DNA from: an uncultured virus (IMG/VR IMGVR_UViG_2061766007_000892)
Lineage: Duplodnaviria > Heunggongvirae > Uroviricota > Caudoviricetes
Length of the DNA stretch: 63,982 nucleotides
Direction: 5' to 3' (one strand)
IMG/VR virus record: IMGVR_UViG_2061766007_000892
The notes below the pieces were generated by a model that made no database searches, was not told where the DNA came from, and saw only the letters and a program-made list of their open reading frames with translations. This document shows positions 23,941 to 60,654 of this stretch, one piece after another; within the stretch, counting starts at the first letter, position 1; each line of letters begins with the position of its first letter. Both the position numbers and the translations under genes were made by a program.

Positions 23941-24227
23941 AATAAATCCTCCACTACCGTTTTAATTAAATCATATGCTTTTTCAGTATCTACTTGAATA
24001 ATGGAGAATACTTTATTATTTTCTCTTTCAATAAGAGGAATATGCACAGTGACATGGCGGTTTAAAACAAATTTTGTAATATGAGAAAATCCGTCTATGT
24101 CTACTTCCTCGCTTTCGCTATCTATAAACAATGCATTTGTAAGAGCGTATAAAACATATAATTTTTCTTCTTCTTTATATAAAATAACTATATATTTTGA
24201 ATTACCTTCATACTTAATAATTTCCAT
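23937..24227 (-). CDS. Hypothetical protein
   Basis: TAATG overlap with the upstream gene. A probable allelic start (MELIEYREFKNIF) is at 20136-20175. Confidence 0.6.
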   Translation of the reverse strand: MEIIKYEGNSKYIVILYKEEEKLYVLYALTNALFIDSESEEVDIDGFSHITKFVLNRHVTVHIPLIERENNKVFSIIQVDTEKAYDLIKTVVEDLL

Positions 24228-25246
24228 TATCCACCGCCACCTACATTTTTATTATATCCAAATTCTTGGCTTTTAAAGAAATCTATATAATATTTTTCTA
24301 ATTCATTTAATTGTTCTTTTTCACAATAGATAATTATTTCAATTGTCCAATTCCAAAAACCAGTTTTCCATATTTCACGGTGTACTGCTTGGTCTGCGAT
24401 TGTTTTTATACCAATTGAACTTTTAAAATGATCGGCAATTCGTTTCTTAACATTGGTACTTTTACCAATATAGCATTTTCCAGTATCAATATTTGTGATT
24501 TTATAAATGCCGGGTTTATCTTCTATTCCGACCCGTTTAAAAGTTCCATCTATATAAGGTTTCACATATTCAGCCCACACAAGTTTATTTATAATATCAG
24601 GATGCTGAACTTTTTGTGAAACAGTAGTAATTAGAAAACTTATATCTTCTTTATATTCATCAGGAACTTGTATTGTATAAAATAAGCGTTCCTGTTGCTC
24701 CATTTCATATTGTCTTAAAGGAAGTAAAAGCCCTTCAAAACGTTCTTGTTGTGCGCGAGTCTCTGCTAGAATATTTTCTTGGCTTTCGCGCGCGGCATCA
24801 ATCACTGACTGGGTTTCTTGACAAAATTTATGTTCTCGTTCTAATTCATCACGCTCAAATTGAGCATATTTAGATTTTAAATTTTCTTCTTTCTCACGCC
24901 ACAATCGTTCAAAATCTGTATCCATTTCTGACTGGCGCGTAAGTTTTTGATTTTCAAAATATAAGTCTAAATCTGTCGTTTTCTTATTTAATTCTCGTTT
25001 ATACTTATTTTGAATTTCAATTAATTTATCATTATATTCACTAACTAAATTAGTTTGTGTTTTAATATCTTTTGTTAATTCATCTTTTTGAAAACGAAGT
25101 TTTTCAACTCTTCCTTCTGCATCAGAGATTTCTTTTTTATAAACTTCTAATTGCTTATTATCAATTGAAATTTTTTGTCCTAGTTTTACACCTAGTATAA
25201 TTATTATAATTGTAAGTATTCCTATTATTCCATATAACATCTACAT
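24227..25246 (-). CDS. Membrane-anchored coiled-coil protein with C-terminal GIY-YIG nuclease domain
   Basis: N-terminal hydrophobic helix (LYGIIGILTIIIIILGV), long coiled coil, then PGIYKITN...CYIGKS...RIADH...LEKYYI...GYN. RBS spacing favours the ATG at 25246, which is followed by TAG. Confidence 0.8.
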
Positions 25247-26628: not shown

Positions 26629-27224
26629 TTAATGAACGTGCTTTACACGTGCTTCTGTTTCTTTTTGTTTGCCCCAATTAAACGCGGTTTTATAATCGCC
26701 GGTAAGATAACCCGTTACGCGACGTAAATGCTGAATATTATGACTGCCGCACTGTGGGCAGGTATCATTAATTTCATCAGCGTAACCACAATCCATACAT
26801 GTATCAAGAGGTACATTTACAGCAAAATATGGAATGTCGTGGTCCATCGCATAATTAACAATAGTTTCAAGTGCTTCAAGATTGTTTTTTACACCAGAAG
26901 GTAATTCTACATAAGTAATACATCCGGCACTGGAATACCCTGTAAGTTCGCTCTCAATATCAATTTTATCAAACACAGAAATATCATGCCATACAGGAAC
27001 ATGGATACTGTTGGTAAAATATTCGTGGTCACTTACTTTTTCAATTTCGCCATACTTCTTTTGGAACTTCTTCATAGCGGTGTAGCATAGATTCTCTGCG
27101 GGAGTATAATACACGCCGAAGTTTAACTTATACTCTTTCTTAAATTCAGCACATCTATCTTTAAATAACTGTTCAATTTGCTTTGCTAATTTCATTCCTT
27201 TTTCGGTAGTATGGTCGCAGCCAA
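26629..27224 (-). CDS. nrdD: NrdD C-terminal fragment (allele 1)
   Basis: YYTPAENLC, YFTNS, CMDCG...CPQCG, and the glycyl-radical motif RRVTGYL. Confidence 0.9.
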
Positions 27225-27235
27225 NNNNNNNNNNT

Positions 27236-27379
27236 TACCTCACTAAAAGCATCAGATGGAGTATAAATAGCACGATAATCTATACAATCTTCTGCATAAT
27301 CAACATCTTTTTCATCATACATAAAATTCCATGGGCATTCGTGCTTTTCTATTTTCCATCTACATTCATTACAAGTCAT
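27236..27379 (-). CDS. Small Cys-containing hypothetical protein
   Basis: MTCNECRWKIEKHECPWNF...DCIDY, immediately after the stop of the second nrdD allele. Confidence 0.45.
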
Positions 27380-27380
27380 T

Positions 27381-29034
27381 TTAATGAATATGCTTAACGC
27401 GGTCTTCAGTTTCTTTTTGCTTGCCCCAATTAAATGCATCTTTATAAGAACCGGTTAAGTATCCAGTGACACGACGTAAATGAGAGATATTATGTCCTCC
27501 ACATTGTGGGCAGGTATCATTCATTTCATCTTGATAGCCGCAATCGTTACAATTATCTAGTGGTACATTTAATGCAAAGTAAGGAATATCTTTATCCATA
27601 GCATAATTGACAATAGTTTCAAGGGCGTCAATATTATTTTTTACGCCAGACGGAACCTCAACATATGTAATACAGCCAGCACTTGAATATCCGGTTAATT
27701 GTGCTTCTATATCAATCTTATCAAAAATTGAAATTTCATGCCATACTGGAACATGAATACTATTTGTAAAATATTCACGATCAGATACATTAGGAATTTC
27801 GCCGTATTTTGCTTTAAATTTTTTCATTGCAGTATAGCATAAGTTTTCCGCGGGAGTATAATATACTCCGAAATTTAATTTATATTCTTTTTTAAATTCT
27901 GCACATCTATCTTTAAATAGCTGTTCAATACGCTTTGCTAATTCCATTCCTTTTTCAGTGGTATGATCACAGCCAATTAAAATTTGTAGAGTTTCAGCTA
28001 AACCTAATTGTCCAATAACAATTGTGCCATGTTTTAAAGCTGAACGAATACCTTCTTCTGGATGATAGCCAAGCATTGTCCCATTTTCATACATAAATTT
28101 TGCTGATGAAGGAGATTGAGAACAAATCCAATCAAAACGTTCAAGTAACATATCTTTGGCTTCATGAATTTTTTGATCTAAGCTGCGTAAAAAGTAATTA
28201 ATTAAATCTTCTTCAATGTCCCATCCTTGTGGATTATTAGAATTTAATTTTGCTTCCATAGCAATAGTTGGCATAATAATTGTAACAGGGCAAATATTGC
28301 CGCGGCCATCCTTTGTTTGAGGATTAGTACCTTCTTCAGCATTAATATCAGCACCGTTCGCAGTCCTACATCCCATTGTGGAGAAGTAAGTTTTAGGGTC
28401 ATTTACATCATAACCAGCATTACCAGACCAATCAACATTAGCGTAATTTGGATAAATACGTTTTGCAGTTGATTCTAATGCTAACCTAAATAAATCATAA
28501 TTTGGATCGCCAGGCTCACGATTCACGCCCTTCATACATTGAAAAATACCACAAGGGAAAATAGGAGTTTTATGAAATTTTCCTACTCCTTTAATTGAAC
28601 CTTCAAGTAATGCTTTTGTTACCATGCGACCTTCGGGCAATGTACAAGTTCCATAGTTAATAGATGTGAAAGGTAGCTGATTTCCGCTTCTAGATTGAAG
28701 TGTATTGAGATTATGATACATACCCTCAACTGCCTATTGTAATTCACGTTCGGTCATATCCATAGCGTATTTATATGCTTTTGTACATAATTTTGCGGTT
28801 TTGACTAATGATACTGTTTCAGAATTAACAGTTGGATTAATATAATCATCAATAGGTTGACGTGCAGTATCAATTCCATATAAAAAATGATCGCTGCCAC
28901 TATTATCAATGTATTCTAATCCATCTTTAAAATGTTTCCAGAAACTTTTTCTAACATAGGGCACCATAGTCCAATCTAAATGCGTAGCTGAAACACCACC
29001 AAATTGCATCAAAGATTGTAGCTGGAAAATAACT
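27381..29034 (-). CDS. nrdD: NrdD middle + C-terminal part (allele 2) with in-frame TAG at 28734-28736
   Basis: Continuous frame VIFQLQSLMQFGG...ERELQ(TAG)AVEGMYHNLNTLQSRSGNQLPFTS...MGCRT...RRVTGYL...KHIH*. Confidence 0.92.
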
Positions 29035-29044
29035 NNNNNNNNNN

Positions 29045-30671
29045 AGTGCTAATGTTCCATGCTTTAAAGCAGAACGAATACCTTCTTCTGGATGATAACC
29101 CAACATAGTCCCGTTTTCATACATAAACTTTGCTGATGCGGGGCTTTGGCCGCAAATCCACTCAAAGCGTTCTAGTAACATATCTTTGGCTTCGTGGATT
29201 TTTCTATCTAAAATTTTTAAGAAAATTTCTTCAATCGGGTCTTGACAACCATTCTCTACATCTTGTTTTGCTAACATAGCAAGTGTAGGCATAATAATTG
29301 TAACTGGACAAATATTACCACGACCATCCTTGGTTTGAGGATTAGTACCGGGCTCAGTATTTATATCTCCTAAATTTGCAGTTCTACAGCCCATTGTGGA
29401 AAAATAGGTGCGAGGATCATTTATATCATATCCTGCTGCATTACTCCAATCAACATTTGCATAATTGGGATAAATTCTTTTTGCAGTAGATTCTAGCGCC
29501 AATTTAAATAAATCATAATTAGGATCTCCTGGCTTACGATTTACACCTTTCATACATTGGAAAATACCGCAAGGGAAGATAGGAGTTTTATGTAACTTTC
29601 CTACGCCCTTAATAGAACCTTCAAGTAATGCTTTAATAACCATACGACCTTCTGGTAATATGCAGGTTCCATAGTTAATAGAAGTGAATGGAAGCTGGTT
29701 GCCACTACGGGATTGCAAAGTATTTAAATTATGATACATTCCTTCTACTGCTTGCTGGAGTTCGCGCTCTGTCATTTCCATCGCATATTTATAAGCTTTT
29801 GTTACTTTTGCAGTTTGCACTAAAGGAAGCACATTTTCGTCAACTGTTAAATTATGATAAGGTTCAATAGGCATTCTAGAAATATCTACATTTAAGAAAT
29901 AATGATTTTCATTACCTTCTTCAAACCATTTTAGTCCTTCTTTAAAATGTTTCCNNNNNNNNNNNNNNNNNNNNNNNGCACCATAGTCCAATCTAAATGA
30001 GTTGCGGAAACACCGCCAAACTGCATCAATGATTGAAGCTGAAAAATAACAGCAACAAGCTGGAAAGCAGTATTAATGGAATTAGCTGGCCGCACATCAG
30101 TTTGTCTAGTATTAAAACCCTCTGCTAATAACTTATCAAAAGGAATAGATAAGCAATTGTGCATACCAACCGCATAAGCACTTAAATCATGAATATAAAT
30201 TTCATTATTTAAATGATTATTTCGTGCCATATCAGACATACAGAAATCAAGTGCATATTGCTTCATCATTTCATCTGATGCTTCGCCCACGCGGCCACCA
30301 AATGAATGTTCATCTACATTAGCATTTTGATTTTGAACATTTTTTGCTTGTAATTTTTCGCTAATTGAACGAATAAATTCATCAGAACAAGCTCTCATAA
30401 CTCCTCGTTTATAGCGATATTTTATATAAGCTTTGGCAACTAATCTATCATAATCAGTTAAATAATCTTCAACTAATTCTTGAATTTGTTCTACAGTTAA
30501 TGGCTCATCAAACTATGAAGCGACTTCATATACTAAATCTGCGATTTCATAAGCATATTCTGGAGTCTCATTTGTAAAATTAACGTCATTATTTGCTTTA
30601 GTGATAGCATTTATTATACGTTGTTTATCAAATTCTACTATGTCTCCATTTCTTTTAATTATATTTATCAT
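29045..30671 (-). CDS. nrdD: NrdD ATP-cone/N-terminal and middle part with in-frame TAG at 30513-30515
   Basis: GGAGG RBS, then MINIIKRNGDIVEFDKQRIINAI...VAS(TAG)FDEPLTVEQIQELVEDYL...AKAYIKYR...YIHDL...ERELQQAVEG...MGCRT...KHGTLA. Confidence 0.9.
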
Positions 30672-30782
30672 AAAAAGCCTCCTATACTAATCCGCCAGTT
30701 TTATAATGAAAACCGCAATACGGACAAGTATTATTTTTTATTAAAGAATAATCTGTACAATGCGGACACTAGCTTTGATTGA
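30655..30782 (-). CDS. Allelic fragment of the small Zn-finger protein, with two in-frame TAGs
   Basis: NQS(TAG)CPHCTDYSLIKNNTCPYCGFHYKTGGLV(TAG)EAFYDKYN* versus the allele NQKHCPH...TCPYCGFHFSTGGIWRENEND*. Confidence 0.7.
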
Positions 30783-30792
30783 NNNNNNNNNN

Positions 30793-31260
30793 CTTCGCCA
30801 TTTCCGACATACAGAAGTCAAGAGCATACTGCTTCATCATTTCATCTGATGCTTCACCTACGCGGCCACCAAAAGAATGCTCGTCAACATTAGCATTTTG
30901 ATTTTGAACATTAGAAGCGGTTAGTTTCTCACTAATAGAACGGATGAATTCATCAGAGCAAGAACGCATTACGCCTCTCTTATAGCGATAACGAATATAT
31001 GCTTTTTCTACGAGGCGGTCAAAAGCCGCTAAATCATCTTCAACTAATTCTTGAATATTTTCAACAGTAAGATATTTTCCACTATCTGTAAAAGTTTGAT
31101 TAGCTACACGTTCAATACTATCTGCAATAATAGTAAAATATTCCGGCTCATCGCGTGTAGAGTCATTATAAACTTGAATCCAAGCTTTTCTAATGGCATT
31201 TATAATTTTAGATTTATCAAAATCAACTTCTGAGCCATTTCTCTTAATGACCTTAATCAT
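30793..31260 (-). CDS. nrdD: NrdD ATP-cone N-terminal fragment (other allele)
   Basis: MIKVIKRNGSEVDFDKSKIINAI...TVENIQELVE...KAYIRYR...NQNANVDEHSFGGR. Confidence 0.9.
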
Positions 31261-31473
31261 TTTCGTTTTCCCTCCAAATGCCGCCAGTGCTAAAATGAAA
31301 ACCACAATAAGGGCAAGTATCATTTGTAATTTCCCAATTATACTTTGTGCTCGTATGCGGGCAATGCTTTTGATTATCAATAATGGCGAGCTTTATTTTT
31401 TGTANNNNNNNNNNNNNNTTCTTAATTCTTTATTAAGCTGTTCACGAGTTTGAATAATATCATCAATCCTCAT
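31253..31473 (-). CDS. Small Zn-finger protein (CPH...CPYCG)
   Basis: MRIDDIIQTREQLNKEL...IIDNQKHCPH...TCPYCGFHF; overlaps both neighbours. Confidence 0.6.
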
Positions 31474-51281: not shown

Positions 51282-51746
51282 TTATGTTAATACTGTTTCA
51301 CACTCTTTATGCTGATAAAGTAATAAAGTTGGATCAAGAATAACTTCAGCAATCTTTTTAATACTCTCATAAAGATTCTTTTTATTTGAGTTCCAAAAAT
51401 GAGAACATCCGCAAAAAGTCATTAAAGAAGTTGTTTCTTCTGTAATTTGAATAACATAAACGACTTTTTTCTTCGCAAAAGCGTACCCTTGTTCCCAATT
51501 TGTACCGGCTGTACTATGTCTTCCAAGACTAATCATTAGAAAAACATCACAATTATCAATTGCCTCTACATCTTTCCAAAATACTTGCGCACCCCAATTT
51601 TCTTGTGACATATGCCAAGCATCTTCAATTTTAAGTTCCCAAGGGCAATAAACCTCAAAGCTCGGTTCATGGCGAAGCCATCCAGCAATATTCATCATGG
51701 TTGTGCGATTTTCAGTATCACAGGGGCCAGCAAGATAGATTTTCAT
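51282..51746 (-). CDS. Nucleoside 2-deoxyribosyltransferase-like protein (NDT/RCL family)
   Basis: KIYLAGP, VYCPWE, DVEAIDNCD, GTNWEQGYAFA. Confidence 0.82.
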   Translation of the reverse strand: MKIYLAGPCDTENRTTMMNIAGWLRHEPSFEVYCPWELKIEDAWHMSQENWGAQVFWKDVEAIDNCDVFLMISLGRHSTAGTNWEQGYAFAKKKVVYVIQITEETTSLMTFCGCSHFWNSNKKNLYESIKKIAEVILDPTLLLYQHKECETVLT

Positions 51747-55216: not shown

Positions 55217-55405
55217 TTATCTTTCTGGAAAGTATTTCTTCCATTCCTTTCTTGAAATTTGTAATCCTCTTCTTAGCATATATTGTGCTCGCGCATAATT
55301 TTTCTTTCTAACTCGTTTCTTTTTATGCCAACAAGCACGCTGATAAGTTTTATTAAACATGATAATTGTTTTCATATGTTTTTCATCAAATTTCAATCTG
55401 GACAC
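55217..55405 (-). CDS. Small basic hypothetical protein
   Basis: HKKKRVRKKN motif; operonic. Confidence 0.5.
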   Translation of the reverse strand: MSRLKFDEKHMKTIIMFNKTYQRACWHKKKRVRKKNYARAQYMLRRGLQISRKEWKKYFPER

Positions 55406-55602
55406 TTCCTATTTGGAAATTTTAATTCATTTATTTGATAATAAATTTTTTTAAAGCATCCTATACAAATATCGCTTTTATTTTCAGATAAAATTATATC
55501 TCCATTATAATTGCGTTCAGGTAATATCATTTGATAAAAATTATCATAATTTTTATGTTGTTCTCTGCCGCAAATATCACAATATCTAATTGTTTTAATC
55601 AT
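55393..55602 (-). CDS. Small Zn-ribbon protein
   Basis: CDICG...DICIGC. Confidence 0.6.
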   Translation of the reverse strand: MIKTIRYCDICGREQHKNYDNFYQMILPERNYNGDIILSENKSDICIGCFKKIYYQINELKFPNRKCPD

Positions 55603-55787
55603 TTGATTTCATTCCTTTTTTCAATTAAAATCTTCATATTTTCATAATCTAATTGCCAAGGCCAATATAAACTAGCGTTTTTACAATCTTTTACATGAGG
55701 ATGATGACAACCATCTATTTCAAAATATTTACAATGCGTATTGCCACAAGTCTCTGCTAAATAAGAATATTCATGCTATTGTATCAT
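55599..55787 (-). CDS. Small Cys/His-rich protein with TAG at codon 4 (missed by the ORF track)
   Basis: Promoter plus AAAGGA RBS, then MIQ(TAG)HEYSYLAETCGNTHCKYFEIDGCHHPHVKDCKNASLYWPWQLDYENMKILIEKRNEIK*. Its stop forms an ATGA overlap with the next gene. Confidence 0.65.
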
Positions 55788-55807
55788 ATTTTTTCCTTTC
55801 TAAAATA

Positions 55808-55836
55808 AGTATAGCATAAATTTAATATGAAGTCAA
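55808..55836 (-). promoter_or_regulatory. sigmaA-type promoter
   Basis: TTGACT-17 bp-TATACT with TG extension. Confidence 0.75.
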
Positions 55837-55849
55837 AGTTAGTGGAGTA

Positions 55850-57169
55850 TTAAACTCCACTAACAATATACATAATCACAAATAAAGCAGATAGAATATA
55901 CATTAGAATAGGAACTTCCTTATACTTTCCGCGAATAACTTTTAGAAGTGTATAAGAAATTAAACCAAATCCAATACCATCACTAATACTATAGGCAAAT
56001 GGCATCATAGCAATTGTTAAGAAAGCGGGAATAGCAATCTCCATATCATTCCAATCAATATGAATAACGTTCTTCATCATAAAGATACCAACAATAATTA
56101 GTGCTGGGGCTGTCGCTGCGGAAGGAATAATTCCAGCGATTGGTGCTAGTAAGCAAGCAAGTAAGAATAGGAAACCAGTTATGACAGAAGCTAATCCAGT
56201 TCGTGCGCCCGCTGCTACACCAGTACTAGATTCTACAAATGTAGTAACTGTACTTGTTCCTAGTAATGAACCAGTGCATGTGGCAATTGCATCAGCAGTT
56301 AGTGCCTTTGACATATCTTGGCTTTTCATATTACCATCTTCATCTAGCATATCGCAACCGGCTGCACATCCTGTTAAAGTGCCAACCGTATCAAAGCAAT
56401 CACACATACAAAGAGTAAGGATTGAAGTAATTAGAGGGAAAAGCCCAAGCGCGGTCAGACCACTAAAAGTTAATTTAAAGAATGTTGGAGCAAGAGTTAA
56501 GTTAGAAAAGTTAAAGGATACTGCCGTATTAGTTACTCCCATTGGAATGCCAATAATTGTTGTAGCAATAATAGCATATAAGATAGCACCGCGAACCTTA
56601 TATACTAGTAAGATGCCTGTAATTAATAGTCCAATTAATGCTAATAATGGAGCCCCGCGAGTAATGCTACCCAAATCTAGTAAATTATCATTAGCTATTA
56701 CAATGCCGGCGTTAATAAAACCAATAAGTGCGATAAACATACCAATACCGACACTAATGGCTCTTTTTAACTGTGCTGGAATAGCTTCAATAATTTTATT
56801 ACGAAGCGGTGAAAGTGTAATGATAAGGAAAATTAAACCGCTAATAAAAGTCATTCCTAGACATTGCTGCCAAGTGTATCCAATCTTCATACAAAGTGTA
56901 TAAGTGAATAGAGCATTAATTCCAAGACCAGGCGCTTGTGCGAAAGGAACATTTGCCATAAAAGCGGTTAGCAATGTTCCAATCGCGGCTGAAATACAAG
57001 TTGCTAGAGTAAGAGCTGTATAATCCATACCGGTTGCACCGAGAATAGATGGATTTACAAAAATGATATAGGCCATAGCCATAAAAGTCACAAGACCGCC
57101 AATAATTTCGCGGCCAATTGTTGAACCGCGTTCAGTGATATGAAACCGATTTTCAAGAAACTGTGTCAT
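55850..57169 (-). CDS. NCS2 family purine permease (AzgA/PbuG-like)
   Basis: EIIGGLVTFMAMAYIIFVNP, APGLGINA, FDTVGTL, GTSTVTTFVESSTGVAAGARTG, ATAPALIIVG, MPFAYSISDGI; many TM helices. Confidence 0.93.
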   Translation of the reverse strand: MTQFLENRFHITERGSTIGREIIGGLVTFMAMAYIIFVNPSILGATGMDYTALTLATCISAAIGTLLTAFMANVPFAQAPGLGINALFTYTLCMKIGYTWQQCLGMTFISGLIFLIITLSPLRNKIIEAIPAQLKRAISVGIGMFIALIGFINAGIVIANDNLLDLGSITRGAPLLALIGLLITGILLVYKVRGAILYAIIATTIIGIPMGVTNTAVSFNFSNLTLAPTFFKLTFSGLTALGLFPLITSILTLCMCDCFDTVGTLTGCAAGCDMLDEDGNMKSQDMSKALTADAIATCTGSLLGTSTVTTFVESSTGVAAGARTGLASVITGFLFLLACLLAPIAGIIPSAATAPALIIVGIFMMKNVIHIDWNDMEIAIPAFLTIAMMPFAYSISDGIGFGLISYTLLKVIRGKYKEVPILMYILSALFVIMYIVSGV

Positions 57170-57170
57170 A

Positions 57171-58471
57171 TTAATTCTCCTTTAACTCATTAGAATTATC
57201 TTTAAGAATTAGATTTAGAGCAATACCTACAATCATTGCAAGAGCAGTAGTACCAAAACTGATAATACCAAAATTACATACTACACCACTTACACCTAAA
57301 GTAAGAACAGAAGCAAGAATAGTAACATTCTTATTATTATTTAAATCAATTCCACTATCTTTAATAGTACGAATACCAGATAGAGTAATATAGCCATAAA
57401 GAACAGCCGCGCATCCGCCAAAAATACAAGAAGGAATTGATACTAAGAAAGATTGTAATGGACCAAAGAAACCAGCAATTGCCATGATAATAGCTGCAAG
57501 ACTGATTACATATTTAGAACAAATCTTACTAAATCCAGTAGTTCCTACACTTTCACCATAACTAGTATTTGGTAGGGCTCCAATAAAACAGCCAACAGTT
57601 GAAGCAATGCCGTCACCAATAATGGTGTTGCCTAAGCCGGGATTTTGAGTTAAATCCGTTCCAATAACTGCGCTTAAAGCTTTATGGTCACTAATATGTT
57701 CTGCGATAGTTACAAGAGAAAGAGGTAGGAAAAGTAGTAAGATTTGTGGCAGTAAGTGCCAATTAAAGTCAGCAAAATCAATATGGAAAAAACTAAAATC
57801 TGGTAGATGAATTAGTTTCATATTATCAAATGCCGCAAAATTAACAATTGGTATATGATGAATTGCGGTGGTAATACTCGCTATGATGTAGACAATAAGG
57901 ATAGCAAACAAGAAAGGAAGATTTCTAATAAAACCTTTCCCATAATGAGAAATAAGCGACGTAACTACAAGAGTTAACATACCAAATCCAAGTCCAATTA
58001 GGCTATATTGACCATTTACTTGAAAATAAGTTGGTAGAAAAGTAGCGAGATTAAGACCAATAACCGCTACAACAGGGCCAATTACTACAGGTGGAAGTAG
58101 TTTATTTACCCAATCAGTACCAAAGTGATTAATAGCAATACCGACTACACAATATACTATACCCACAACAATACCGCCAATAGCTACAGCNNNNNNNNNN
58201 NNNNNNNNNNNNNNNNNNNNNNNNATGCCCCAATAACTGCGGCAACAAATGCGCCAGAAGAACTGATGAACATCGGGCTTTGACTACGAGTAAATAGTTG
58301 ATAAATTATTGTACCTAGACCTGCGCCAACCATCGCAGGAGCAATAGGAACGCCGCAAATCTGTGGAATAAGAATTGTAGCGACAAAGCAAGCAATTACT
58401 TGTTGTAGAGCAGCGACGATTAGCCGCTTTGTTGGAAGACGGTCATTAATACCGTAAAGCATATTATTCAT
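57171..58471 (-). CDS. NCS2 family uracil/xanthine permease (UraA/PyrP-like), one gap
   Basis: ALQQVIACFVATILIP, FISSSGAF, LPPVVIGPVVAVIGL, AEHISD, GDG, PNTSYGE, GGCAAVLYGYI. Confidence 0.92.
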
Positions 58472-59090
58472 CTTTATATTTCTCCTTCAAAATTGGTAAA
58501 ATTTCATCAAATGAATTATGTAGCATATGGTCTTCAGTTGCATAAAGAATCATACCATATAACATTTGATTTATACTAAAACTACGACGCCAATCTTTTT
58601 CATTTAGATGATTGGTGCGAATGTCAAAATAGTGGGCATAATTTTTCTTATTATTTTGTTCTGTCAATTCTTGTAATATTGAGCAAAGTAAATCATGAGT
58701 GTGGTTTAAATCTAACTCCATAATTCCTTTTTCATTTTTTTCAATTGCTTCATTAAAAATGTCTAGCAATTTATTAGACATATATTTCCAACCATAAAGC
58801 ACACCCATTTCACACATGGTGCCAATAGCAGATTGTTCGGGGCAAAGAACAGTATAATCACTATTCCATAATCTATCAATATCTGCTTCACAGATTTTTT
58901 CAGCCAGATGATTATTTTCTTCTTCTGTCATATTTGATTTATCATTAATTGATTTGTTTTGAACTGGTGAATATACTTCTCCGGGAATTTCTGCTTTCTT
59001 GAATTGCTCATACTCATATTCGCGTGCGAGATTGCTCCCAAAAGTCATAATATCCCCACCAAGATAGCCAAGTGGTCTCTTATTCTCCAT
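58464..59090 (-). CDS. Nucleoside 2-deoxyribosyltransferase-like protein
   Basis: GYLGG, VYSPVQNKSINDK, ICEADIDRLWNSD, IGTMCEMG (candidate catalytic Glu). Confidence 0.75.
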   Translation of the reverse strand: MENKRPLGYLGGDIMTFGSNLAREYEYEQFKKAEIPGEVYSPVQNKSINDKSNMTEEENNHLAEKICEADIDRLWNSDYTVLCPEQSAIGTMCEMGVLYGWKYMSNKLLDIFNEAIEKNEKGIMELDLNHTHDLLCSILQELTEQNNKKNYAHYFDIRTNHLNEKDWRRSFSINQMLYGMILYATEDHMLHNSFDEILPILKEKYKDE

Positions 59091-59102
59091 ATTATTCCTC
59101 CA

Positions 59103-59402
59103 TTAATCTAAGGTTTCAAAATACCAATGTTTTTCTTCTTCAGTTCCACGGGCCTCTAGCCAATCCCACTCTAATTCATTATATTTATAATAAAGGTCTG
59201 AATAGATTTTAGAAAGTTCTTCATTTCCTTTATCATACCAATACCAGCACTTATGATTTAAAGCGGTTACAAATGCGGCCATTGCTTGAACATCATCGCA
59301 ATAAGTCTCATAGGTTTGAGTGGCCCATTCTTCAAGATAATCCTCGTTTAGACACGATAGAATCCAAAACTTTAGCTTGAGTTCCTCAAAATAATTATTC
59401 AT
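59103..59402 (-). CDS. Hypothetical protein, first gene of the NDT-permease operon
   Basis: AGGAG RBS; Trp/Tyr-rich 99-aa ORF. Confidence 0.6.
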   Translation of the reverse strand: MNNYFEELKLKFWILSCLNEDYLEEWATQTYETYCDDVQAMAAFVTALNHKCWYWYDKGNEELSKIYSDLYYKYNELEWDWLEARGTEEEKHWYFETLD

Positions 59403-59423
59403 ATTTTGCTCCTTTTTTCTTTT

Positions 59424-59452
59424 ATTATATCATAAAATTTGAAAAAAGTCAA
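59424..59452 (-). promoter_or_regulatory. sigmaA-type promoter for the NDT-permease operon
   Basis: TTGACT-17 bp-TATAAT with TG extension. Confidence 0.8.
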
Positions 59453-59481
59453 AAATAAAAGGAGGGAGATTTCTCTCCCTC
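59453..59481 (-). terminator. Intrinsic terminator after phoH
   Basis: GAGGGAGA-GAAA-TCTCCCTC followed by CTTTTATTTTT. Confidence 0.75.
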
Positions 59482-60654
59482 AATCTAGTAAGGTTGCTAA
59501 TTCAGCCATCTTGCTTCTTTCTGTTTTAATTAAATCAACACAACCAAACATTGGTTGTCCAACTAGTTTCTTTTGCATCGCTTTTATTCCATTATCCTTT
59601 TCAAAAATTTCTTTGTCTACTTGTCCGTGATAGTCACCATTANNNNNNNNNNNNNNNNNNNNNNNNCGAGAGATTAATAATTTTATTTGAGAACTTGTAA
59701 GATTTTGTCCTTCAGTGACATAGATAATTGCGTTTTCCCAGCTGCGACCGCGGCAGAATCCTAGGTTTACAGCTTCTATTTGGTCTTGGGAAGTAAAGAT
59801 TTCAAGNNNNNNNNNNNNNTTTTTTGCTCTATGTCATTAGGTAGAAAACCAATTTGTGGGGTGTCTTTTAAATCAATTAGGTTACGAACAAAGACTAGTT
59901 TATTTTTCTTTCCTTTCTCAATTAGGTTTAGTGCGTGGATAAGAGCACAATAATCTTTTCCACTTCCATAAACGCCAGTGATAAGTTTGATAGGAATATC
60001 AGGGTTTTGTAGTAAATCAAACATCATTTTTTGATTTAAATTACGCGGTGACACCTTTATACCTAATGTTNNNNNNNNNNNNNNNNNNNNNNNNNNNNCG
60101 CAATCTTTGATATGATTTGCCATCCCATCGTAAAATATCTGCTAAATTACCTTCATTATCAAATATTTCACAGTATTCATTTACTTTGGCGTTTAATACA
60201 TTTTGATTTAAACCTTCAGAATATAATGCTACTAATTCATCATCTNNNNNNNNNNNNNNNNNNNNNNNNNNNNNNNNNNNNNNNNNNNNNNNNNNNNNNN
60301 NNNNNNNNNNNNNNNNNNNNNNNNNNNNNNNNTTGTTATGAAGTTTACATGTGACTTCTTTCTATTAAGAAAGACTGCCTCACATAATAAATAATGGTCA
60401 TTAATGTTCATTAAAAATGGATATTCTTTGAAAATTTTATCTACCTGCTTCATAGAAACAGGTAGAACTTTTACTTTTTCATTAGAAAGTATTGCGCGAA
60501 CGGCTTGCCGCGCTTTATATTTAAGATTGTCATCCTTATGAATAGAAGTTTTTATATTTTCTAATTCTGCGATAGCCAATGGACTAATATAGATATTATC
60601 ATATAAATCTAATGCTCCATTTAGTATGGCAGAAGTATCAAGAAAATTAATCAC
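59480..60654 (-). CDS. phoH: PIN-PhoH fusion protein (PhoH2-like), gapped
   Basis: PIN: FLDTSAIL...IAELENIK...ARQAVR...NDH. PhoH: PRNLNQ, ITGVYGSGKD, IGFLP, FCRGRSWENAIIYVTEGQNLT, GD..Q.D, TERS. Ends TGA at 59480. Confidence 0.85.

Follow-up and report, generated by a model that had tools for sequence, protein, structure and literature searches.

Genes of nucleotide metabolism are known phage cargo. Among phage cassettes that combine an importer with an enzyme, NARP3 consists of two genes coding for a PnuC-like transporter and a NadR-like enzyme, which restore the NAD+ depleted by Sir2-HerA (PMC13464706). On the enzyme side, EfPDT of Enterococcus faecalis (PDB code: 7M5H) is a type I (purine) 2'-deoxyribosyltransferase (PMC12372993). 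Here we analyze a DNA stretch of 63,982 nucleotides (the window) from an uncultured tailed phage (IMG/VR record IMGVR_UViG_2061766007_000892), in which a four-gene operon between positions 55850 and 59452 encodes a small protein (ORF99), an enzyme of the nucleoside deoxyribosyltransferase (NDT) family, and two permeases of the NCS2 family, one UraA-like and the other AzgA-like. We propose, with somewhat more confidence than doubt, that the operon serves nucleobase uptake coupled to deoxyribosyl transfer and salvage.

Conservation of the NDT and permease genes

The IMG/VR scan with the UraA-like protein retrieved 50 loci with identities of 71-100% and a further one with 38%, and that with the AzgA-like protein 9 loci at 87-94% identity; as two loci of the former repeat contigs of the latter, 57 distinct loci were obtained. 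For 54 of these loci the upstream DNA extends for 1.5 kb or more, and upstream genes were counted in them; downstream DNA of that length is present in 51 loci. An NDT-family gene is located upstream of the UraA-like permease gene, within 1.7 kb, in 54/54 loci. Its product is either of the type found in the window (type A, 29 loci) or of a second type at the same position (type B, 25 loci; 174-262 amino acids (aa), same PHROG, PF05014 score of 41.5 bits, which passes the cut-off). In one locus (L143) the UraA-like permease is replaced by a 38% identical one and the NDT pairing is kept. Either partner appears to be replaceable by a distant homolog with the pairing left intact, and unless the pair is under selection, the maintenance of adjacency and order in all 54 loci despite such replacements is difficult to account for. 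The genes of the module are under purifying selection: the median pairwise ratio of nonsynonymous to synonymous substitution rates (dN/dS) is 0.086 for the UraA-like gene (47 sequences, 1019 pairs), 0.065 for the AzgA-like gene (8 sequences, 28 pairs), 0.154 for NDT type A (29 sequences) and 0.049 for type B (25 sequences), values that are rough with dS at ~1.5-1.75, near saturation, and still clearly far below 1.

The original prediction regarded an NDT and two NCS2 genes as a trio to be sought in relatives. The NDT and UraA-like pair is indeed conserved, whereas an AzgA-like gene follows the UraA-like gene in only 12 of the 57 loci (11 of the 51 with sufficient downstream DNA). Since 9 of these 12 were found with the AzgA-like query, the count overstates the true share; the scan with the UraA-like query has the gene in 5/50 loci. 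AzgA-like variants of 65-67% (L120 and L121) and 38% identity (L129) occupy the same position behind the UraA-like gene, and the presence of different AzgA-like genes at one position is best read as repeated gain. The nearest relatives by backbone (L095, L096, L099, and L114; ClpP 97-99% and PhoH 99% identical) are devoid of the AzgA-like gene. A cassette-less allele was also found in a 678-nt contig from a sheep-gut RNA library (X20, record 12), which joins position 55824 to 57262 and has 100 other letters where the window has the 1437-nt AzgA-like gene, with small open reading frames (ORFs) following the UraA-like 3' end; the X20 run covers 13/30 bins with short contigs of a relative, and RNA libraries may hold DNA. 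The conserved unit is thus the NDT gene with the uracil-type permease gene, the purine permease gene being an accessory cassette.

A recent capture from a host was ruled out for the AzgA-like gene. The phage copies are 87-94% identical to each other, and the top match among 450 confirmed bacterial relatives has 53% identity. The bacterial scan comprised 185,579 prokaryote species, each represented by a single genome, and used shared 8-residue patterns, by which distant relatives are under-sampled and near-identical ones should have shown. In a quick maximum-likelihood tree (IQ-TREE; 88 rows, with three short or stop-containing bacterial rows left out), the phage copies group in a single clade (SH-aLRT 100, stem 0.64) with L129 alone elsewhere; of the two origins that the original prediction had set against each other, a phage-specific clade and a recent capture, the tree supports the former for this gene.

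The presence of an NCS2 permease in cultured phages was likewise rejected: tblastn matches to the permeases in the GenBank phage collection reach at most 51% identity, no near DNA match to the permeases of the operon was found among these phages, and the matches that were followed up are bacterial DNA filed as phage. Thus ‘Campylobacter phage A11a’ (MG065691.1, 39949-51217; L154) is 100% identical to the adeP region of E. coli K-12, and a contig of ‘Acinetobacter phage MD-2021a’ (CAKLQF020000006.1; L012) is a piece of Acinetobacter chromosome with alaS, thrA, csrA and similar genes. The permease matches in this collection are therefore mostly contamination. Two unannotated faecal ‘Bacteriophage sp.’ contigs carry an AzgA-like gene only, the other module genes being absent.

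DNA methyltransferase genes (phrog_757 or Dam-type D12 class) come and go in the variable region of the module. Such a gene directly follows the AzgA-like gene in L008 (9347-9982) and L009 (9347-10033) and lies upstream of the NDT gene in L005 (4841-5455) and L006. In G010, a relative of 184,104 bp that is nearest to the window, a Dam-type gene (L150:12370-13212) is found just 3' of the UraA-like permease gene, with one small ORF between them.

The encoded proteins and the layout of the operon

The NDT-like protein (58464..59090, minus strand, 208 aa) matches phrog_1817 at 3.6e-36 (PHROGs carry no curated score cut-off). A large protein collection holds 1566 homologs at E <= 0.001, the best 120 of which are 72-88% identical, some being on contigs of up to 190 kb; at the level of 50% identity clusters, 145 representatives match the protein. 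Y9, N49, K51, D70, G90, E94, D156, R158, and G179 are invariant in 42 full-length sequences and N174 is nearly so. The profile of this alignment retrieved 7M5H at 2.8e-11, with Y9, D70, E94, and N174 aligned to the corresponding residues of EfPDT. The catalytic Glu (E94, in a GT..E.G motif) is invariant in all compared NDT paralogs of these phages. Superposition by VIA of residues 4-102 of the AlphaFold (AF2) model (predicted local distance difference test score of 92.1) with 7m5h gave a Z-score of 7.7 and a root-mean-square deviation of 2.0 over 93 residues, a Z below 8 being middling by the tool's own guidance; 7m5h tops the VIA list ahead of other NDT, DNPH1, and MilB structures. The leading Foldseek and VIA matches are all NDT, PDT, DNPH1, or MilB proteins; Foldseek against the PDB gave a best E-value of 0.03 and none at or below 0.001, hence the NDT assignment relies on the profile search and the VIA alignment. 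In the model, residues 103-208 form two long helices, followed by a C-terminal strand and helix with the D156/R158/N174 motifs. The model and the profile place the enzyme in the NDT family, with a predicted NDT-type flavodoxin-like fold. Among 28 longer homologs no annotated domain fusion was found, the extensions being unannotated except for one weak match: P0180, a distant homolog of 380 aa, has N-terminal AAA_18 (23.9 bits) and AAA_33 (20.6 bits) matches, both below the cut-off, and may be an NDT-kinase fusion.

The UraA-like protein (57171..58471, minus strand) is a putative nucleobase:cation symporter. PF00860 is matched in an N part (32.2 bits, profile positions 3-75) and a C part (176.1 bits, positions 93-385) at a cut-off of 27. 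The nearest NCBIfam model is the uracil permease equivalog NF007995, matched below its cut-off (206.2 and 46.5 bits in two parts; cut-off 477). The full-length orthologue of L008, which is 96% identical to the C part of the window's protein, matches the E. coli UraA structures at 3.4e-52. Identity to the E. coli proteins is 33% for UraA, 28% for RutG, and 23-25% for XanP, XanQ, and UacT. In the alignment of the L008 orthologue with 3QE7, AEH and YGE are kept, and the window translation has the same letters. The substrate-site glutamates in transmembrane helices (TM) 8 and 10 of UraA are E241 and E290, and both aligned glutamates are kept; the position aligned with His245 of UraA is occupied by Asp followed by His. 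The protein is nearest to UraA in the uracil-type branch of NCS2, short of being an equivalog.

A run of 34 N (58191-58224) lies inside the UraA-like gene and the reading frame differs across it; the closest relative, L008, has 29 nt at this position with an open frame, and the visible parts of the window's gene on either side are stop-free. The window contains 65 N-runs totalling 3531 bases. At all 9 masks bracketed by alignments to G010, which is 79-94% identical in DNA over the replication module, the length of the N-run differs from that of the corresponding stretch (for instance, 10 vs 1045, 41 vs 396, and 35 vs 26), and the genes for DNA polymerase, the RecJ-like exonuclease, and PhoH, single ORFs in G010, show frame shifts at N-runs in the window. 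As the run lengths are unreliable, frame breaks at N-runs of the window are not to be read as pseudogenes, and the frame change in the UraA-like gene is uninformative on gene integrity.

The AzgA-like protein (55850..57169, minus strand, 439 aa), the product of the accessory gene, resembles AdeP-like purine permeases. It matches PF00860 with 130 bits over profile positions 3-385 and the plant AZG1 structures at 1.4e-58, and it keeps the D..D and ESSTG motifs found in AZG1. Identity is 36-37% to AdeP and AdeQ (282-286 bits) and 32-33% to GhxP and GhxQ (191-204 bits). Of 162 columns that separate the Ade from the Ghx pair of E. coli, 55 are Ade-like in this protein, 35 are Ghx-like and 72 resemble neither, which gives only a lean towards adenine over guanine/hypoxanthine specificity. 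In agreement with the original prediction, the two permeases fall into different branches of NCS2, one uracil-type and one adenine/AzgA-type.

All elements of the operon are on the minus strand. The expression signals were scored in the region 55300-59900, which holds 30 promoter-like sites (20.1 +/- 3.9 in shuffles) and 6 terminator-like sites (2.4 +/- 1.5 in shuffles). A terminator-like hairpin with a T-run (59462..59481; 8-pair stem with 5 GC pairs, tail CTTTTATTTT) closes the unit of the upstream PhoH-like gene and is followed by a sigma-70-type promoter-like site (59424..59452; TTGACT-17-TATAAT with TG upstream of the -10 hexamer), which at 11/12 matches is the top-scoring one of the region; the dedicated, terminator-insulated promoter that had been predicted is thus recognizable. 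The first ORF, ORF99 (59103..59402, 99 aa), is acidic and Trp-rich; no family match was found in Pfam, NCBIfam, or PHROG, nor a usable match in the Atlas, and relatives of 31-96% identity (tblastn) are located upstream of the NDT gene in 25/57 loci. Shine-Dalgarno sequences precede all four ORFs. The NDT stop codon (58466-58464) either gives an 8-nt overlap with the first ATG of the permease gene or lies 1 nt ahead of the second ATG, and there is a single base between the stop codon of the UraA-like gene and the start codon of the AzgA-like gene, so the four ORFs and their tight junctions are as originally described. The AzgA-like stop codon overlaps with a second terminator-like hairpin (55838..55864, 11-pair stem), beyond which comes the next promoter-like site (55836..55808; TTGACT-17-TATACT with TG).

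Outside the operon, ~4 kb downstream, there is a second, canonical NDT-family gene (51282..51746, minus strand; PF05014 49 bits, above the cut-off; phrog_7995). These phages have up to three NDT-family paralogs per genome, all with the catalytic Glu: the phrog_1817 type, the canonical PF05014 type, and a PF15891 type located between the primase and RecJ genes. In G010 they are at L150:10156-10812, L150:18109-18582, and L151:12248-12739; in the window, at 58464-59090 and 51282-51746.

The operon is flanked on either side by phage genes. The window encodes a tape-measure protein, DNA polymerase, primase, helicase, RecJ-like exonuclease, type II topoisomerase subunits, RuvC-like resolvase, DNA ligase, ClpP, PhoH, and RNase H, and, as predicted, NrdD, NrdG, dUTPase, and a deoxynucleoside monophosphate (dNMP) kinase accompany the operon. 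It is a stretch of a large tailed phage with a whole genome of roughly 180 kb; the source phage, of ~165-190 kb, is from ruminant-gut metagenomes. The nrdD gene is broken up by a GIY-YIG endonuclease gene. Five NrdD ORF pieces lie within 26629-31380 (minus strand), a stretch into which several N-runs fall; two of them, 26629..27195 and 27381..28721, have a common match in the C-terminal part of the profile, and a GIY-YIG endonuclease gene (24227..25240) is found downstream, past nrdG. The fragmentation is suggestive of a partial duplication or of traffic of introns or homing endonucleases.

A mis-scaffolded block of host DNA, the artefact that the original prediction had warned of, was ruled out by the phage genes on both sides and the presence of the arrangement in 57 IMG/VR loci. 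Contigs of two other studies, X3 (20,452 nt; 111 differences over 2,568 nt) and X4 (3,645 nt; 180 differences), also carry both permease genes contiguously at about 95% identity, with downstream phage genes.

Eleven near-complete relatives (163-190 kb, 93-100% complete by CheckV, six with terminal repeats) were inspected for nucleotide metabolism. ThyA, ThyX, thymidine kinase, and deoxynucleoside kinase each had no match in any of the 11, the control genomes being matched. In G010, the Pfam scan covered 173/205 ORFs (27 ORFs, mostly of the structural block or large replication genes, and 5 boundary-spanning ones were left out) and found, besides the three NDT-family paralogs, a dCMP deaminase, a dUTPase, a dNMP kinase, and a marginal NT5C-like nucleotidase. 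G010 also carries an Rnl1-type and a second RNA ligase, an HD-fused P-loop kinase, a Thg1-like 3'-5' polymerase, and a cyclic-phosphate-processing receiver domain (L146:3358-4500, L146:10249-11139, L146:17877-18707, L149:8714-9100, and L149:9593-10243), an apparent RNA/tRNA-repair set. An isochorismatase-family, nicotinamidase-like gene (L147:2690-3211) adjoins a phosphoribosyltransferase/phosphoribosyl pyrophosphate synthetase-like gene (L147:3208-4023), a pair that may act in NAD+ salvage or reconstitution.

Proposed function and competing explanations

We propose that after infection the four genes would be transcribed from their own sigma-70-type promoter and that a UraA-like H+ symporter, joined in this phage by an adenine-type AzgA-like symporter, would enter the host membrane. 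The symporters would bring in free pyrimidine and purine bases, which are plentiful where nucleic acids turn over. The NDT-family enzyme would move 2-deoxyribose from deoxynucleosides (e.g. from host DNA) onto the imported bases, and available deoxyribosyl donors would in this way be turned into the deoxynucleosides needed by an A+T-rich phage. Host kinases and the phage dNMP kinase would carry these on to dNTPs; a further route for imported bases might lead through the phosphoribosyltransferases of the host and the NrdDG reductase of the phage. The choice of substrates, an inward transport, a transferase rather than a hydrolase chemistry, and the coupling of permease and enzyme are all inferred. 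This model of uptake plus transfer agrees with the linkage in 54/54 loci, the exchange of parts, the purifying selection, and the lack of a thymidylate synthase, and NARP3 is its closest functional precedent (PMC13464706).

Several observations weigh against it. (i) The NDT-like protein scores 23.2 bits with PF05014, under the cut-off of 28.8, it is devoid of the Asp that precedes Gly in the D.G...E.G stretch of 7M5H, and it carries the invariant D156 and R158; such a protein may be a hydrolase or use nucleotides as substrates. (ii) The UraA-like frame is not traceable over the 34-N run of the window, and among the 57 loci this ORF is whole in 52 and interrupted in 5. (iii) The tight junction of the window recurs in 10/54 loci, where the NDT and permease genes overlap or lie within 6 nt of each other; in the other 44, 157-1627 nt, often with small ORFs, lie between them, so translational coupling of the two genes is not general. 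(iv) As a deoxynucleoside kinase is not recognizable in the phages, the products of the NDT would depend on host kinases. (v) The dCMP deaminase and dUTPase of G010 point to intracellular dUMP rather than to salvage of thymine or uracil.

An extension of the proposal, which we put forward tentatively, is that a clade of large ruminant-gut phages without thymidylate synthase and nucleoside kinases may depend on base exchange by self-encoded NCS2 and NDT proteins, taking uracil or thymine (and adenine) from the gut fluid and joining them to deoxyribose of host origin, so that DNA synthesis would be partly uncoupled from the host's de novo and folate-dependent supply. In that case these would be the first phage-encoded nucleobase transporters, and the module would be a nucleotide counterpart of NARP3.

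Two other explanations are, in our judgment, improbable to a similar degree. One, the main rival, is that the operon is a counter-defence module of the NARP3 kind, in which importer and enzyme refill a pool (dNTPs, deoxynucleosides, or adenine nucleotides) drained by host immunity. The NARP3 cassette (PMC13464706) is a precedent for such restoration, and the module lies among small ORFs in a region of high variability, with exchange of cargo such as the two NDT forms, the AzgA-like gene, and methyltransferases. Against this, the family scans found no defence or anti-defence family in or beside the operon, an NDT-permease pair present in 54/54 loci suits core metabolism better than a host-specific countermeasure, and base import would be a slow way to refill dNTPs.

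The other is that the permease(s) and the NDT are independent passengers, separately useful or neutral morons that are not biochemically coupled and are gathered at a shared recombination hot spot. A permease could simply raise the NTP supply via host phosphoribosyltransferases, the region is mosaic with the 157-1627-nt spacers of 44/54 loci, and NDTs of the phrog_1817 type are found in cultured phages (481 GenBank records at 30-35% identity, 360 of them from Staphylococcus phages), with the followed-up AzgA-like tblastn matches in the same collection being Acinetobacter and E. coli DNA. What makes mere co-residence improbable is the adjacency and order kept in 54/54 loci despite distant replacements on both sides (NDT type A or B; the 38% identical permease of L143).

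Lower still we rate a non-canonical base pathway, an alternative already raised by the original prediction, in which a purine-specific NDT, for instance in phages with 2-aminoadenine (Z) DNA, would remove dA or make a modified deoxynucleoside and the permeases would import or dispose of bases. A short (358-360 aa) PurZ-like homolog of adenylosuccinate synthetase is encoded by 4 of the 11 near-complete relatives, including the nearest one: G010 (L146:15618-16694, ~75 kb from the module), G013 (C1:133619-134683), G014 (C1:48322-49392), and G001 (L013:1489-2571). These proteins match PF00709 with 54-70 bits, and the L013 copy (69.7 bits) matches phrog_1211, ‘2-aminooxy adenylosuccinate synthetase’ of the PurZ type, at 1.6e-36; part of the clade may therefore make 2-aminoadenine DNA. 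In addition, the nearest solved relative of the NDT-like protein is the purine-specific EfPDT, and a preprint ties NDT genes to dZ phages and describes a dA-preferring purine NDT (bioRxiv 10.1101/2025.10.22.683976). However, no PurZ-like gene was found in the other 7 of the 11 near-complete relatives, which keep the NDT and the UraA-like permease, or within the 64 kb of the window (3.5 kb of it N). The PDB matches of the PurZ-like protein are weak (1e-4 to 1e-7) and are adenylosuccinate synthetases only, with no chain named PurZ; no MazG or DatZ-like family was found among the 173 scanned ORFs of G010; and the conserved partner of the NDT is a pyrimidine-type, not a purine-type, permease. The alternative has limited support: it gains from the PurZ-like gene in some relatives, including the nearest, and loses by the seven in which the module persists without it. 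A ThyA-like route to hydroxymethyl-pyrimidine DNA was ruled out, as ThyA and ThyX are found in 0/11 relatives.

Comparison with known systems

If nucleobase uptake is coupled to deoxyribosyl transfer as we propose, replication of gut phages would partly depend on extracellular free bases, and virome productivity would be tied to diet and nucleic-acid turnover. The NDT genes widespread in cultured phages would acquire a testable role, and compact, phage-optimized pairs of permease and NDT would become available for nucleoside biocatalysis. Since the clade is abundant (1566 NDT homologs, 57 IMG/VR loci), the result would apply widely. PHROGs has small families for both permeases, one of which is labelled ‘tail protein’. 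A full-text search found no description of a phage nucleobase permease in the literature it covered and, in accord with the original prediction, no phage module of this pairing.

At the level of the single proteins, the NDT-like protein and EfPDT share the fold over residues 3-102 (VIA Z 7.7), an N-terminal Tyr, INDKS, an Asp, the catalytic Glu (G...E.G), and a C-terminal Asn. Identity to EfPDT and to the NDT/PDT enzymes of lactobacilli is only about 20-26%, and the phage protein, unlike EfPDT, has a ~55-residue helical insertion (roughly 103-148) and the extra invariant D156 and R158. The UraA-like protein and E. coli UraA (PDB codes: 3QE7, 5XLS) are both NCS2 proteins that match over the full length with two substrate-site glutamates kept, their TM10 motifs being GESVG and GENIG, respectively. 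As in E. coli uraA-upp, the permease gene has a salvage-enzyme gene as its neighbor; in the phage this partner is an NDT, whereas upp encodes a phosphoribosyltransferase. The AzgA-like protein resembles the adenine permeases in its motifs of TM1 (VNP), TM3 (GxNA), TM8 (FD..GT), and TM10 (ESS.GV) and, unlike AdeP, AdeQ, GhxP, GhxQ, and AZG1 (PDB code: 8IRL), belongs to a phage-only clade.

At the level of the gene set, the NDT genes of dZ phages are alike in that a phage NDT and a PurZ-like gene occur together in some genomes; in the preprint (bioRxiv 10.1101/2025.10.22.683976) the words ‘permease’ and ‘transporter’ have 0 occurrences, and most relatives studied here are without a PurZ-like gene. 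NARP3 (PMC13464706) is likewise a compact phage cassette in which a full-length membrane importer is joined to a cytoplasmic enzyme that uses the imported precursor, and the same logic of transporter and enzyme side by side is kept here in 54/54 loci. The two differ in their protein families (PnuC and NadR vs NCS2 and NDT) and in their currency (NAD+ vs nucleobases and deoxynucleosides), and NARP3 counters Sir2-HerA by experiment, whereas the function of the present module is predicted. The module appears to belong with phage salvage modules and importer-plus-enzyme cassettes, as one that ties a nucleobase permease to a deoxyribosyltransferase in a manner undescribed in the literature searched.

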